A stretch of 32,000 nucleotides of DNA from Candidatus Heimdallarchaeota archaeon (lineage in GTDB: Archaea; Asgardarchaeota; Heimdallarchaeia; Heimdallarchaeales; Kariarchaeaceae): positions 450,001 to 482,000 of the forward strand of contig JASBSB010000006.1 of the NCBI GenBank assembly GCA_030149205.1, written 5' to 3'. The position numbers and the translations under genes were made by a program. Below, piece by piece: positions 13,646 through 19,360 of this stretch (the stretch's first letter is position 1; every line of letters starts with the position of its first letter). The notes under the pieces were generated by a model. The model saw only the letters and a list, made by a program, of their open reading frames with translations. It ran no database searches and had not been told where the DNA came from.

Positions 13646-14308
13646 GTGTTATTGAAAACCAGATTAATTGAATTCGAACAACCATTAGAAGTTGAACAAA
13701 ATCTGAAAAGTGGGGAACTTGGGGTTATACTAGGTCACGGGGATAGATCTGACATAGACCTCCCAATACTAAAATCCTTGACAAAAGAATTAAACAAAAA
13801 TGATGTAAGCGTTATCAAAGTACGATATCCATTTCGAGTTAGAGGAAAGAGGATTCCCGACAACTCAGAGCTTTTAGATCGAGCATTACTTAGTGTTTGG
13901 AATTGGGTGGAATCTGACTCAAACCTTTCTAAGAAAAAATGGGCGATTGGAGGTCACGACCTTGGAGCTAAAGTAGCATTACGGGTTTCTTCTCTTATTA
14001 TGCAAAATGACAAGCCAATCCCTACAATATGCCTCAATTTTCCAATGTATCCACCCAATAGACCTGAGAAATTAAATATAAATGAAATTCACGCTATAGT
14101 TGGTCCTGTATTGTTTATTCAAACAGACAAAAATTCAAAAGGTACCTTTACAAGGTTGCAAAATCAGCTTGCGATGTATGCATCCTTTTGTGAGATGAAA
14201 CTCATCAAAGGTGGAGATATCGACTTTGAGATAAAGGGGAAACCTGCTTCACTCGTGGCAAAGTGGATAACAAATGACATTTTAACTTTTATGCGGAATA
14301 ACCTTTAA
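13646..14308 (+). CDS. KANSL3/Tex30-like alpha/beta-hydrolase-fold protein with a degenerate triad
   Basis: VILGHG, YPFRVRGKRIPD, AIGGHDLGAKVA, ICLNFPMYPP, GPVLFIQ and IKGGDIDF are collinear with this family, but Ser, Asp and His are not at their usual positions. Confidence 0.75.
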   Translation: MLLKTRLIEFEQPLEVEQNLKSGELGVILGHGDRSDIDLPILKSLTKELNKNDVSVIKVRYPFRVRGKRIPDNSELLDRALLSVWNWVESDSNLSKKKWAIGGHDLGAKVALRVSSLIMQNDKPIPTICLNFPMYPPNRPEKLNINEIHAIVGPVLFIQTDKNSKGTFTRLQNQLAMYASFCEMKLIKGGDIDFEIKGKPASLVAKWITNDILTFMRNNL

Positions 14309-14394
14309 TTAAGTTGTAAAATAAAATTGAGATTTTTGACAGTATTATAAATTCTTTAAAAAATCATATTAACTGTCTCCCGAAATTTAGGTTA

Positions 14395-17292
14395 GTGAGT
14401 TCAGAAAATATAGAACAAATACCCTTTCACTCCAAAAAATTAGGAGAAACCTTGGACATTTTTTCAACAGACAAGGAGTTAGGGATTCATTCTAGTAAAG
14501 TTGCAGGTCTTCATGAAAAATATGGATACAACAAGATAATTCAAAAACCGCCTAGCATCTGGAAGGTGTATCTCGCCCCCTTATTTGACACTTTGATAAC
14601 TATATATTTGATAATGGCGGGGATACTTTCATTATTATCGGCCTTCGTACCTGGGGTTCGTGGTCAGGTTACCTTCTGGATAATAATAATTGCATTGAAC
14701 ATGATATTGGCAATCTTTCAACAATATCGAGCACAGAAAAAGGTTGATGCATTAAAGAAACTAAGCCCTCAAAAGGCTAATGTAATTAGAGATGGACTAG
14801 AAATTGAAGTTTTGTCAGAAAATTTAATCCCAGGCGATATCATTATTCTCGGACTGGGTGATAAAATTCCAGCAGATGCCAGACTAATTGAGACTAACAA
14901 TTTATCTATTGATGAAGCATCTCTTACGGGAGAGAGTGTTCCTATACAAAAGTTCAGAACTTCACAGTTAAATTCTGCTCTTCCTGCTGAAACACCCATT
15001 GGAGAGAGGGGAAATATGATATATCTGGGTACTTTCATACAGACAGGATCTGCTAAAGCAGTGGTCTGTCAAATTGGAAATAACACAGAGTTGGGTAAAA
15101 TTTCCAGCAAGATGGATGAGCTCACAGAGGTAGAGATTCCTCTAAGAACAAAGATCAACGCTCTTGGAAGGGGATTAGGGATTTTGATGAGTGTTTTCTT
15201 AGCAATTGCAATAATAGTCAAATTTTGGATACGAATGGTTCAAGGGTCAAACTTCACCATTGATCAGATTGCCAAGGATATTGCTGATTCAATTGTTAAC
15301 GCAATGGCAGTTATGCCGATCAACATTCCTCTACTTACAACGGTAGTATTGATCACTGGGGTACTCCAGATGGCAACAAAACAGGTTATCGTCAAAGAGC
15401 TCTCTGCTGTTGAAACATTAGGAAGAACCTCAGTTTTATGCTCTGATAAAACCGGGACAATGACCACGTCTAAGATGACAGTTGTCAAATTCTGGAACAG
15501 AGTCTCTATGGTTGATGTAAACGCAATTGATGGTACTGTTGAGACATATGTGGATGGAAAGGAGGTCAGTCTTGATAAAATTATCAAGGATGAGAACAAT
15601 AAACTTTTCCTGTACAATGCCCTGTTGAATAACAGTGCAAAGTTAGTTGAAACATCTGATCCAGAACATTTTGACATAGCTGGTAATCCAACAGATGGTG
15701 CTTTGTTGACCCTTTGTGTGAGAATTGGACTTCCCATTCGTAAAATCAAAGATAGCTTTGTACAGATCAAATCCTACCCATTTGATTCCAAGGTTAAAAG
15801 AATGTCTGGGGTCTTTGAAGACAAAAGCTCCAAACAGCTTCTAGCTTTCACTAAGGGGGCTTCTGATATACTTCTACCACTTTGTACCCAAATTAAGGAC
15901 TCTTCATCTTCAACAAAATTAACTAAGAAGAAAAGAGACGAGATCCTGAGTCAGATCAACAAGTTGGCTAACCAAGGATACAGAATAATTTCTCTTGCGT
16001 ATAAAACATTAGACAGCATTCCAGAGGATGAAGATGACTTAGTTGAAGAAAGAAAGAGAATAGAATCAGACTTGACCTATTTAGGATATACTGTAATTCT
16101 AGACCCTCCACGACCAGGTGTAAAAGAAGCGGTAGCAAAACTTGATAGCGCAGGTATATTTCCTGTTATGATTACAGGTGACGCACCATCAACAGCTGGT
16201 ACAATTGCGCAACAAGTAGGCATTCTAGACCCAGATGAATTGGTAATTGAAGGGAAGGAAATCATGGATTTAAACGATGAAGATTTTCTTAAGGTTTCTG
16301 TTTTTGCAAGGGTTTCACCTCAAGATAAACAAGTGATAGTAGAACGGTACCAAGACGTAGGCAAAGTTGTAACAATGACAGGTGATGGTGTGAATGATTC
16401 ACTTGCAATTGCTATGGCTGATGCTGGAGTAGCCATGGGGATTACTGGTACAGAGGTTACAAAGGAGGCAGCAGATATGATTATAGCAGATGATTCATAT
16501 GTAAGTCTAGTTACAGGGGTTGAAGAGGGAAGAAACCTTTTTGAGAAGATACGAATAATGATCTTCTTTTATATTGCTGTAAACTTTGCAGAGGCAATAA
16601 TGTATTTCTCAACCCAATTCTTAATGGAACAGGGGAACTTCCTTCAGCTTTTGAACAACTATCAGAGAACCTATATTTTCTCAATAGTACACGCCCTTCC
16701 ACCATTAGCAATAATTTTTGGGAATAATGATTGGGAAATTATGAAACTCAAACCTAGAGAACAAGCTGCAATTTTGTCTAAACGAATGATCCAAGCTTTG
16801 ATTCTCTATTCTTTATTATCTGTCAGTGGGATTTTGTTAGTTTATTTCATGCAAGATGGTAATTTCCTGGGATGGTTAGGTGTGAGCAGTTTTAATAAAC
16901 TAGGATTCAACCCAGAGTTTAGAACACCTGATTTTCCAAAACAACCAATTGAATGGACCCAAGCAAAAGCTAGAACCATGTTACTTTCCGTGATTTACAT
17001 CTCAGAAACATTCATGGTTATTAGTATTAGGAGAATGAACAGATCATTCATTCAAAGTCTAAGAGACTCAAATCTATTCATATTAGCAATGGTTTTCTCC
17101 CCACTTATCATTCATTTTGGACTCATGTACATCTTTCCAATTCAATATTTCATTGGGTATTTTGGGATCAACATTGACCTAATCTTTCTAGACCCGCTGG
17201 ATCTCTTCATTGTTTTCTTTTTCGGATTACTGCCGGTTGCTGCATTAGAGATCTTTAAGAAGTTCGTAAGAGAAAAGGGTGAACAATTTTGA
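14395..17292 (+). CDS. P-type ATPase, P2-like scaffold, non-canonical transport site (substrate unknown)
   Basis: LTGES (A domain), DKTGT phosphorylation site, KGA (N domain), MITGD, FARVSPQDK, MTGDGVND; 10-TM layout. TM4 reads MPINIP rather than PEGL. Confidence 0.93.
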   Translation: MSSENIEQIPFHSKKLGETLDIFSTDKELGIHSSKVAGLHEKYGYNKIIQKPPSIWKVYLAPLFDTLITIYLIMAGILSLLSAFVPGVRGQVTFWIIIIALNMILAIFQQYRAQKKVDALKKLSPQKANVIRDGLEIEVLSENLIPGDIIILGLGDKIPADARLIETNNLSIDEASLTGESVPIQKFRTSQLNSALPAETPIGERGNMIYLGTFIQTGSAKAVVCQIGNNTELGKISSKMDELTEVEIPLRTKINALGRGLGILMSVFLAIAIIVKFWIRMVQGSNFTIDQIAKDIADSIVNAMAVMPINIPLLTTVVLITGVLQMATKQVIVKELSAVETLGRTSVLCSDKTGTMTTSKMTVVKFWNRVSMVDVNAIDGTVETYVDGKEVSLDKIIKDENNKLFLYNALLNNSAKLVETSDPEHFDIAGNPTDGALLTLCVRIGLPIRKIKDSFVQIKSYPFDSKVKRMSGVFEDKSSKQLLAFTKGASDILLPLCTQIKDSSSSTKLTKKKRDEILSQINKLANQGYRIISLAYKTLDSIPEDEDDLVEERKRIESDLTYLGYTVILDPPRPGVKEAVAKLDSAGIFPVMITGDAPSTAGTIAQQVGILDPDELVIEGKEIMDLNDEDFLKVSVFARVSPQDKQVIVERYQDVGKVVTMTGDGVNDSLAIAMADAGVAMGITGTEVTKEAADMIIADDSYVSLVTGVEEGRNLFEKIRIMIFFYIAVNFAEAIMYFSTQFLMEQGNFLQLLNNYQRTYIFSIVHALPPLAIIFGNNDWEIMKLKPREQAAILSKRMIQALILYSLLSVSGILLVYFMQDGNFLGWLGVSSFNKLGFNPEFRTPDFPKQPIEWTQAKARTMLLSVIYISETFMVISIRRMNRSFIQSLRDSNLFILAMVFSPLIIHFGLMYIFPIQYFIGYFGINIDLIFLDPLDLFIVFFFGLLPVAALEIFKKFVREKGEQF

Positions 17293-17446: not shown

Positions 17447-19360
17447 TTGAAGCAGAATAAATCAATTGATGAAATTCGGGGAGAAATCGAAGAGATGATT
17501 CTAGATAATACTGAGGTTACAAACGTTGAATTTGAAGGACCTGAAATAGCAATCTATACTAAAAATATAAATTCATTAATTAGTGAACCAAATTTTATTT
17601 CACAGCTAGCTAAAAAACTAAGAAAACGTGTTGTCATTCGTCCAGATGTGAGCATTCGATCTGGGAAAAAGGATGTTGAGCAAATTGTTAGTCAAATAGT
17701 TTCTTCCTCTGTGGATATCAGCACAATTGAATTTGACGATGCACTTGGTGAAGTTATTGTTGAGGTCGATCATCCTGAGAAACTCAAAGGGGAGGGAATT
17801 GATAGTGTTGAATTAATCACAAAGAATACTGGATGGAGACCTCACTTCTATAGAACACCACCCATTGAATCCACAATGATAAAATCAATTAGACACATCT
17901 TATTTTCTGAGACCGAGAGCAGAAAAAGAGCTTTGAAAAATATTGGAAGAATCATAAACCGACCAACTTATCTAAAAAAACCAATAGTGAGAATGACTGC
18001 ATTGGGTGGATATTTAGAGGTAGGTAGGTCATCCACACTCTTACAGACGGGGGACGCAGATATTCTTGTGGATTGTGGGGTAAGTGTCGGGTATAATGCA
18101 CCGGGAGAATACCTCCCAAGGTTTGACTTACCCGAGTTTGATATTAATGCATTAGATGCTGTTGTGATTACACATGCCCATTTAGATCATTCAGGATTTG
18201 TTCCTTTCCTTTTCAAATATGGATACAGAGGCCCGGTTTATTGCACTCCACCAACATTATATTTTATGATATTACTTCATTTAGATTACCTCGATGTAGC
18301 AACCAAAGAAGGTAAACTCCTTCCATATTCACGAACTGACGTGAGAGATGTTGTACTACACACGATAACCTTAAATTACAGCGAAGTAACAGATATTGCT
18401 CCAGGAGTAAAATTGACCTTTCAGAACGCAGGACATATTGTAGGATCAGCTCTAGCGCACTTGCATATTGGAAATGGACTTCATAACATCATGTTTGCTC
18501 ATGATTTTAGATTTGCCCCCTCGCGAATATTGGATCGAGCAGTCCATAAATTTGTTAGACTGGAAACATTAGTAATGGAGTCCACCTATGGAAACCCTGA
18601 AGATGTTGTTCCCTCAAGGAAAGAGTCTGAAGAGATGCTCCGGGAAATTATTGAATTAACACTGAACAGGGACGGGAAAGTGTTAATCCCTGTCCTTGCT
18701 GTGGGAAGAGCTCAGGAATTATTAGTAATTATAGAAGATCTTATGTTAAATGAGAAAATCCCCGAAGTCCCAATTTTTATTGATGGTATGATTCGTGAGG
18801 CAAATGCCATAACCTCTGCTTTTCCAGAGTTTCTTTCTAAAACACTTCAAGATGAAATCTTAGATAAACAACATAACCCATTTCTTGCTGAATTTTTCCA
18901 TAACGTTTCAGATGATAATACCAGAGATGAAATTATATCAGGAGATCCTTGTATTATATTTGCAACTAGTGGGATGTTAGCAGGTGGTCCATCAGTTAAG
19001 TACTTTACAGCTCTTGCTGAGGACGAAAAGAACTCTCTTATTTTTGTATCATATCAAGGAGCAGGGACTTTAGGTAGAAAAGTTGAAGATGGAACCCGAG
19101 ATATCCCTCTGAGAGATGATCGAGAGAAAACTTATCTCTTAAAAGTGAAGATGGAAGTTCACAAAATCTCAGGATTTACTGGTCATAGTGATAGAGGTGA
19201 GCTATTAGAATACATCAAAAGAATTTCACCTAGACCAAAAAGGTATGTAACTGTCCATGGTGAGGAAACGAAATGTAAGAATCTCGCTAAAACCATCCAT
19301 AAAATGGTAAAACGTGAAGCTTTAGCTCCACCAATCGGGACAACAGTTAGACTAGTATAA
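17447..19360 (+). CDS. aCPSF1: KH-domain beta-CASP ribonuclease aCPSF1 (archaeal transcription termination factor FttA)
   Basis: N-terminal tandem KH region (VEFEGPEIAIYTK, KLRKRVVIRPD), HAHLDH, AGHIVGSA, MESTYG, GRAQE, SGML.GG, GHSD and VHGE motifs; 637 aa; TTG start preceded by GAGGG. Confidence 0.95.
   Translation: MKQNKSIDEIRGEIEEMILDNTEVTNVEFEGPEIAIYTKNINSLISEPNFISQLAKKLRKRVVIRPDVSIRSGKKDVEQIVSQIVSSSVDISTIEFDDALGEVIVEVDHPEKLKGEGIDSVELITKNTGWRPHFYRTPPIESTMIKSIRHILFSETESRKRALKNIGRIINRPTYLKKPIVRMTALGGYLEVGRSSTLLQTGDADILVDCGVSVGYNAPGEYLPRFDLPEFDINALDAVVITHAHLDHSGFVPFLFKYGYRGPVYCTPPTLYFMILLHLDYLDVATKEGKLLPYSRTDVRDVVLHTITLNYSEVTDIAPGVKLTFQNAGHIVGSALAHLHIGNGLHNIMFAHDFRFAPSRILDRAVHKFVRLETLVMESTYGNPEDVVPSRKESEEMLREIIELTLNRDGKVLIPVLAVGRAQELLVIIEDLMLNEKIPEVPIFIDGMIREANAITSAFPEFLSKTLQDEILDKQHNPFLAEFFHNVSDDNTRDEIISGDPCIIFATSGMLAGGPSVKYFTALAEDEKNSLIFVSYQGAGTLGRKVEDGTRDIPLRDDREKTYLLKVKMEVHKISGFTGHSDRGELLEYIKRISPRPKRYVTVHGEETKCKNLAKTIHKMVKREALAPPIGTTVRLV

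Follow-up and report, generated by a model that had tools for sequence, protein, structure and literature searches.

Subfamilies of P-type ATPases are defined by the chemistry of the cavity that is formed by transmembrane helices (TM) 4, 5, 6 and 8, and each known signature maps to a class of substrates. The known single-site Ca2+ pumps (PMCA, SPCA and LMCA1) retain Ca2+ site II and not site I. Here we describe a P-type ATPase gene in a 32,000-nucleotide stretch of DNA from Candidatus Heimdallarchaeota archaeon (GenBank assembly GCA_030149205.1, contig JASBSB010000006.1, positions 450,001–482,000), referred to below as the window. The product of this gene (14395–17292 of the window), hereafter the query pump, has its best sequence matches among the P2A Ca2+-ATPases, SPCA1 (1.9e-113) and LMCA1 (1.6e-112). 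It is an uncharacterised but real and conserved P2-pump variant, and its substrate is probably a small cation other than Ca2+.

The query pump contains all five Pfam domains of the type II P-type ATPases (E1-E2_ATPase, Cation_ATPase, Hydrolase, Cation_ATPase_N and Cation_ATPase_C), each above its cut-off, and scores 247 bits with the model TIGR01494, whose cut-off is 62. The same Pfam domain search found no metal-binding domain at its N- or C-terminus. A preliminary description of this DNA had considered the cytoplasmic machinery intact and P2-like on the basis of the motifs TGES, DKTGT, KGA, TGD and GDGVND. All five were confirmed by translation and make up the full set of superfamily motifs; KGA is found at residues 487–489, with its Lys487 invariant in the family, and TGD at residues 594–596.

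The residues of the ion site were assigned from HMMER alignments of the query pump to human SPCA1 and SERCA1/2, which are gapless over TM4, TM5, TM6 and TM8. Positions 15304–15345 are translated as MAVMPINIPLLTTV, with PINIP encoded at 15316–15330, and positions 16663–16704 as QRTYIFSIVHALPP, with the codon for His766 at 16690–16692. Compared with SERCA, E309 is changed to I309, G310 to N310, N796 to F762, T799 to V765 and D800 to H766, and the residues N768, E771, E908 and H944 are retained as N730, E733, E871 and H907, respectively. The substitutions in TM4 and TM6, the survival of the TM5 and TM8 residues and the resulting loss of site II with retention of site I had been read by hand in the preliminary description, and the alignments to SPCA1 and SERCA bear out each of these assignments. 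As judged from them, Ca2+ site II (E309, N796 and D800) is erased in the query pump, and the site-I residues N730, E733 and E871 are retained. No acidic residue is restored by alignment at the position of either E309 or D800: there are no gaps in TM4 or TM6, the spacing between P308 and D351 is 43 residues, identical to that in SERCA, and the stretch of TM6 between residues 755 and 778 contains no acidic residue that a shifted alignment could recruit. The core of TM5 (residues 724–741) has no basic residue, so that it carries neither the Lys of P4 pumps nor the Arg of P3A pumps.

These substitutions are not unique to one assembly and are shared by a clade of 226 members. A word-indexed search yielded more than 115 full-length homologues with 40–60% identity and the same TM4 motif throughout, and in an exhaustive profile-free search the PINIP-type motif class continued to ∼ 460 bits, below which the matches were canonical PEGLP pumps. 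The residues at the ion site were tabulated for the 226 clade members, including those from species-representative genomes, and for 90 PEGLP pumps. Position 309 is hydrophobic in every member of the clade (Ile in 211) and never Glu, whereas all 90 PEGLP pumps have Glu. Glu733 is found in 226 of the 226 sequences (100%), His766 in 224 (99%; Asp in 86 of the 90 PEGLP pumps), Asn730 in 220 (97%), Asn310 in 215 (95%), Met304 in 203 (90%; Val in PEGLP pumps) and Glu871 in 194 (86%). An aromatic residue (Phe, Tyr or Trp) occupies position 762 in most clade members, as against Asn in 88 of the 90 PEGLP pumps, and other cavity aromatics are Tyr or Phe at position 737 (89%) and at position 868 (64%); PEGLP pumps have Asn, Ile or Val at these three positions. 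The Asn of TM2 (N102) is also conserved.

The deepest branches of the clade have PWNFP or PFNFP in TM4 and already carry Asn310, Asn730, Glu733, His766 and Glu871. Met304 and Arg758 are absent from these basal branches and appear to be additions of the crown group. In a monophyletic-looking subclade of 30 sequences (for example, P0077), Glu871 of TM8 is replaced by Ile, His864 and Pro872 are gained in the same helix, and Lys is often found at position 302 of TM4; this subclade may have a different specificity or stoichiometry. Down to 33–40% identity, more than 200 sequences keep the catalytic motifs together with the residues of the new site. Because they are conserved in more than 200 homologues, the substitutions can be attributed neither to chance nor to sequencing error, and the pattern indicates that strong purifying selection is acting on the rebuilt site itself.

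An AlphaFold 2 model of the query pump, built from an alignment of 66 sequences (mean predicted local distance difference test score 87.8, predicted template modelling score 0.83), has 10 TM helices. In this model TM4 is unwound at residues 305–310, and TM6 is broken or kinked at residues 766–767, as it is in SERCA at D800/G801, which places Asn310 and His766 exactly at the two helix breaks of the canonical P-type binding site. The top 50 matches in a Foldseek comparison with the PDB were SPCA1, SERCA, LMCA1, Na,K-ATPase and H,K-ATPase, all of them P2 pumps, with E-values of 1e-58 to 1e-53 against SPCA1, SERCA and LMCA1 and TM-scores of up to 0.79; no P4 or P5 structure was among these 50. A feature search of the ESM Atlas with the query pump returned generic P-type ATPase clusters only.

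A maximum-likelihood tree of 74 pumps was built with the P1B pumps of the host genome as root; in it, the pumps with a P-x-N-x-P motif formed a monophyletic clade (Shimodaira–Hasegawa-like approximate likelihood ratio test, 100) that was sister to the sampled PEGLP pumps of the P2A type, and the P3A- and P3B-like pumps of the host genome fell outside this clade. The query pump also scored below the NCBIfam equivalog cut-off of every model for Ca2+, H+, Mg2+ and Na/K pumps. NCBIfam scores of 460–541 bits were far under the Ca2+-pump cut-offs of 798 and 703; the scores of the query pump were 460.8 bits with TIGR01522 (PMR1-type; cut-off 798) and 410.2 bits with TIGR01116 (SERCA-type; cut-off 703), and PEGLP control pumps reached 777–823 and 707–713 bits, respectively. 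The P3A model TIGR01647 gave 293 bits (cut-off 615.5), the P5 model TIGR01657 gave 233 bits (cut-off 618) and the P4 model TIGR01652 gave 94 bits (cut-off 431). As controls, two PEGLP pumps scored 97–103 bits with the P4 model and 247–248 bits with the P5 model, and two other clade members scored 101–126 and 224–236 bits. Thus, P4 and P5 pumps have no particular kinship with the clade, whose scores with these models match those of ordinary PEGLP pumps.

The suggestion in the preliminary description that the protein belongs to a separate subfamily is therefore well founded, as the homologue search and the tree place it in a conserved monophyletic clade on a P2 scaffold. The accompanying idea of a P2-to-P4-like intermediate fell to the presence of TGES rather than DGET, the lack of a TM5 Lys, P4 and P5 scores no better than those of ordinary Ca2+ pumps and a ranking of fold matches composed of P2 pumps only. 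On sequence grounds, the pumps with PINIP and the TM6 His are a distinct, old and Asgard-centred subfamily on the P2 scaffold, and the features that define it are a P-hydrophobic-N-hydrophobic-P motif in TM4, NxxE in TM5, an aromatic residue together with His in TM6 and a Glu that is usually present in TM8.

The phylogenetic distribution of this subfamily was examined with a degenerate DNA pattern for PINIPLLTT[IV][IV]L, which was scanned over 185,579 species, one genome each, and matched at least 118 loci, nearly all of them in Asgard archaea. The lineages represented were Thor, Hermod, Heimdall, Hod, Kari, Prometh/Loki, Odin, Atabeya and Asgardarchaeum. The preliminary description had taken the genome for an Asgard-like one, and the named homologues, which come from Heimdall, Kari, Hod, Thor, Odin and Loki lineages, agree with this. 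A P2-type match at E ≤ 1e-100 was found in 375 of 400 Asgard genomes, and in the large families (f1, f3, f5, f12, f19, f20 and f31) nearly all genomes had a match at E ≤ 1e-150, a grade (∼ 500 bits) that was reached only by clade members in the exhaustive profile-free search. Several small Asgard families had matches at the PEGLP grade only; of five such genomes that were spot-checked, four had PEGLP-type pumps only and the fifth encoded a PINIP pump whose match was split. Two PINIP copies per genome are common in Asgard archaea and are often arranged in tandem; because the two copies fall in different subclades, the duplication is old. Tandem pairs are seen, for instance, at L024, G397:C86, G051:C13 and G144:C86.

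Outside the Asgard archaea, a full-length copy with 40% identity and the whole site signature is present in a closed metagenome-assembled genome (MAG) of Dehalogenimonas sp. (CP139473; L085:1815–4778, minus strand). It is found in only one of the 81 genomes of its order and is probably, to judge from its sequence and this distribution, an isolated transfer from an Asgard archaeon. In this Chloroflexota chromosome the PINIP/TM6-His pump adjoins a gene for a presenilin-like SPP. An Aerophobetes MAG encodes a tandem PINIP pair, and one divergent member of the clade comes from a MAG labelled Korarchaeota. Some Asgard genomes also encode a different P2 pump, with PEGLQ in TM4 and AIDLGIDI or AIDLFIDI in TM6 (L145, G116:C1:3571575–3574127; L146, G002:C1:1646249–1648858), which resembles the sites of the Na,K-/H,K-ATPase type (P2C).

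The host assembly (3.3 Mb in 12 contigs, 93.5% complete) encodes nine P-type ATPases. Four are P1B pumps, two with CPC, one with CPH and one with APC/HEGS (Co/Fe-type); one is P3A-like (PVALP, TM5 Arg, TM6 Asp), one is P3B-like (PDLLP) and one is a canonical P2A Ca2+ pump that has PEGLP with NLVTD. Given these, Ca2+, H+, Mg2+ and heavy metals already have conventional candidates. The remaining two are the PINIP paralogues, the query pump and P0041 (G000:C2:406417–409353, minus strand), which is encoded 55 kb upstream of the query gene, shows 49–52% identity and has the same site signature. The only K+ systems found in the host genome were two K+ channels of the Ion_trans_2 + RCK type (C4:308769 and C8:409976), and there are three CPA (Na+/H+) exchangers. 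The Amt/Rh ammonium transporter (PF00909) was not found in this 93.5%-complete genome, whereas 14 of 14 control genomes were positive.

The intact gene, its fold, its conservation, its membership in the clade and the non-Ca2+ type of its site are directly supported, and it is from these that we infer the class of substrate. The preliminary description had proposed a non-metal substrate (a lipid headgroup, organic ion or anion); the cavity, which retains two Asn, a His and an invariant Glu, looks like a site for a small cation. We attach about even confidence to the reading that this is a functional P2-type pump for a small inorganic cation other than Ca2+, with a monovalent ion (H+, K+ or Na+) favoured on the site residues and by analogy with better-known pumps. 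Such a pump would retain the E1/E2 phosphorylation cycle and the mid-membrane cavity at the helix breaks of TM4 and TM6. Its one remaining site would consist of Asn310, Asn730, Glu733, His766 and, usually, Glu871, the hydrophobic residue at position 309 would serve as a gate, as does the Ile of P3A pumps, and one H+, K+ or Na+ would be moved per cycle. A monovalent ion is favoured because no carboxylate other than Glu733 is invariant and because Glu733 is paired with the titratable His766. The known sites for divalent cations in P-type ATPases have at least two anionic ligands, and the single-charge site of P3A pumps, with one Asp behind the TM4 Ile, handles H+; by analogy, these precedents also favour a monovalent ion. 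The preliminary description had held that this is no ordinary H+ pump, which is correct as far as membership in P3A is concerned (there is no TM6 Asp and no TM5 Arg) but is too sweeping in that H+ might still be moved via the Glu–His pair.

Several observations weigh against a monovalent substrate. His coordinates K+ and Na+ poorly, and a transition metal would likewise be well served by a set of His, Glu, Asn and Met304 (90% conserved). The host already has a candidate proton pump of the P3A-like type as well as its three Na+/H+ exchangers. The gene neighbourhood of the query gene and of its relatives gives no functional hint. In our literature search, which covered work on Asgard P-type ATPases and on P6 ATPases, we found no description or mention of the clade or its motif, and the clade has no characterised member. 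Finally, four of the five spot-checked Asgard genomes, which lack a PINIP pump, also lack Trk, Kup and Kdp.

The last point bears on a bolder form of the monovalent-ion reading, in which the PINIP/TM6-His pumps would be the primary alkali-cation pumps of Asgard archaea, with a new ion specificity, and would catalyse active K+ uptake or an exchange of the Na+/K+ or H+/K+ type. In a phylum-wide search, TrkH/KtrB was found in one of 400 Asgard genomes (as a fragment with a stop codon), Kup in none of 400 and KdpA in none of 400; the control searches for TrkH, Kup and KdpA matched 11, 5 and 6, respectively, of 14 reference genomes of archaea and bacteria. Asgard genomes thus appear, on these searches, to be devoid of all three classical systems of active K+ uptake, which is a new side finding. 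Few or no K+ transporters were listed in a survey of the Asgard transportome, where the P2-type pumps are putative Ca2+-ATPases (PMC7997004). The lack of the classical uptake systems counts in favour of the monovalent-ion reading and makes an alkali-cation role for the PINIP pumps attractive; in the bolder form, if true, these pumps would take the place of Trk/Ktr, Kup and Kdp, which are missing throughout the phylum. The argument is weak, however, because Asgard lineages without PINIP pumps miss the same systems and because of the poor match between His and K+ or Na+, and we consider the bolder proposal decidedly improbable.

The main rival to the monovalent-ion reading is a site for a divalent transition metal, or for Mg2+ or Mn2+, in a pump for import or export that would use His766, Glu733, Glu871, Asn310, Asn730 and perhaps Met304. 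His, carboxylate, Asn and Met make up a typical ligand set for Mn, Fe, Co, Ni or Zn, Met304 is found in 203 of the 226 clade members in place of the Val of PEGLP pumps, and Mn2+ is also a substrate of SPCA1, the nearest relative with a solved structure. However, only one carboxylate is invariant, Glu871 having been lost in a whole subclade, and Met304 is missing from the basal branches. There is no metal-binding terminal domain, no gene for a metal regulator or chaperone was found near the pump in the window or in the neighbourhoods of its relatives, and the host already has the four P1B pumps, including the APC/HEGS one of the Co/Fe type. On balance, we regard a divalent metal substrate as unlikely.

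A Ca2+ pump that binds a single Ca2+ in a remodelled site I, and in this is the converse of the site-II-only pumps, would be in keeping with the retention of N730, E733 and E871, which are SERCA site-I ligands, and with public annotation and the transportome survey, both of which label the Asgard orthologues as putative Ca2+-ATPases (PMC7997004). Against this, D800, which bridges the two sites of SERCA, is replaced by His and T799 by Val, one subclade does without Glu871, and the known single-site Ca2+ pumps keep the opposite site. Moreover, a canonical PEGLP/NLVTD pump coexists in the host genome, and all scores are under the cut-offs of the Ca2+-pump equivalogs. Ca2+ is, in our opinion, a very improbable substrate.

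A large or an organic substrate, for instance a lipid headgroup (as in P4 pumps) or a polyamine or other organic cation (as in P5B pumps), might be accommodated by the more hydrophobic and aromatic cavity. The Ile at the E309 position, as in the PISL motif of P4 pumps, and the aromatic enrichment at positions 762, 737 (89%) and 868 (64%) could be taken to support this. However, the pump has TGES and not DGET, its TM5 core is without Lys and the second Pro of PxxxP is retained, scores with the P4 and P5 hidden Markov models equal those of ordinary Ca2+ pumps, and the 50 best fold matches include no P4 or P5 pump. Nothing marks the query pump as a lipid flippase, and we find an organic substrate highly doubtful. 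A genome search for PF03381 (Cdc50) produced no match, but the control search matched no genome either. Lastly, the loss of the canonical ligands and the frequent presence of two paralogues per genome might raise the suspicion that the pump is degenerate or does not transport (as a regulatory ATPase or a paralogue in decay), but the frame is open, the catalytic motifs and new site residues are invariant over more than 200 sequences and selection acts on the site itself, which makes a dead pump very unlikely, to the point of being almost negligible.

The positions of the pump, its motifs and its downstream neighbours are listed in Table 1. The gene 5′ of the pump ends at 14308. The pump gene stands alone, and the A/T box in front of its GTG codon suggests, as a feature read from the DNA, that it has its own promoter. 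The G+C content is uniform across the pump region (0.36–0.37). The neighbours of the query gene encode an alpha/beta hydrolase, FttA/aCPSF1 and a leucine-rich-repeat protein, and neither of the latter two looks linked to the pump. No family-wide gene partner was found on three long contigs or by all-against-all clustering of open reading frames from 118 loci. The only synteny was seen in the Thorarchaeota lineage, with a divergent S8 peptidase gene upstream (45 loci) and panB downstream, neither of which is present in the window. In the same lineage, 14 of the 118 loci have a gene for a protein of ∼ 640–657 residues that lies 14–35 nt downstream, on the strand of the pump gene (for example, L010:8922–10895) and is possibly co-transcribed with it; this protein has a faint match to the Pfam domain E3_UFM1_ligase and is absent from the window.

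Table 1. The pump gene, its catalytic and ion-site motifs and adjacent features (positions in the 32,000-nucleotide window).
Feature	Position	Strand	Remarks
Putative TATA-like A/T box	14343–14351	+	∼ 45 nt 5′ of the GTG start; read from sequence
P-type ATPase gene, complete	14395–17292	+	GTG start; 965 aa, with 10 TM helices predicted
A-domain dephosphorylation motif TGES (residues 178–181)	14926–14937	+	Nearly invariant in family; not P4 DGET
TM4 P308-I-N-I-P312, replacing PEGLP (E309>Ile, G310>Asn)	15316–15330	+	Translation and alignment
Phosphorylation motif DKTGT (residues 351–355; D351)	15445–15459	+	Invariant in family
P-domain hinge motif GDGVND (residues 663–668)	16381–16398	+	Invariant in family
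TM5 N730-F-A-E733 (SERCA N768, E771)	16582–16593	+	Alignment and clade counts
TM6 F762-S-I-V765-H766 (SERCA N796, T799, D800)	16678–16692	+	Alignment and clade counts
TM8 E871 (SERCA E908)	17005–17007	+	Alignment and clade counts
Archaeal termination factor FttA/aCPSF1 (KH, beta-CASP, RMMBL)	17447–19360	+	Directly downstream of the pump
Leucine-rich-repeat protein, 286 aa	19460–20320	+	Downstream of FttA/aCPSF1

Most genomes sampled from the archaeal phylum that is closest to eukaryotes have the conserved but uncharacterised PINIP signature, and often two copies of it. Databases label these proteins as Ca2+ pumps; to identify their substrate would put right an annotation that is widespread and would add a branch to the scheme by which P-type ATPases are classified. 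It would be relevant, too, to the way in which ion gradients are set in Asgard cells, given the apparent lack of classical active K+ uptake. The clade has no bearing on the origin of the eukaryotic P4 or P5 pumps.

Among the described systems, the query pump is closest to the P2A pumps (SPCA1/PMR1, LMCA1 and SERCA), with which it shares the order of domains, the 10 TM helices, TGES, DKTGT and GDGVND, the Asn and Glu of TM5, the Glu of TM8 and the His of TM9; it differs from them in having PINIP for PEGLP and F..VH for N..TD in TM6, so that the bridging Asp has become His. With the P3A pumps (AHA2, Pma1 and their methanogen homologues) it has in common a TM4 Pro followed by the hydrophobic Ile, a conserved TM2 Asn, a titratable residue at the TM6 position equivalent to D800 and a single central charged site, although this residue is His instead of Asp, Arg is missing from the TM5 core and the P3-like pumps fall outside the clade in the tree. 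The likeness to P4 flippases is confined to the Ile at the position of SERCA E309 (PISL and PINIP); unlike them, the query pump has TGES instead of DGET, lacks the TM5 Lys and retains the second Pro of PxxxP. P5 pumps have PPxLP in TM4, whereas the query pump has a single Pro before the Ile. Another prokaryotic offshoot of a P2-like scaffold that has lost the TM6 Asp is CtpE of Mycobacterium (P6), which retains PEGL, has Ile at the position of the TM6 Asp and lacks the N-domain Lys (Palmgren, 2023, PMC10654040). In contrast to CtpE, the clade of the query pump has lost the Glu of PEGL, carries His in TM6 and keeps the KGA Lys487 invariant.

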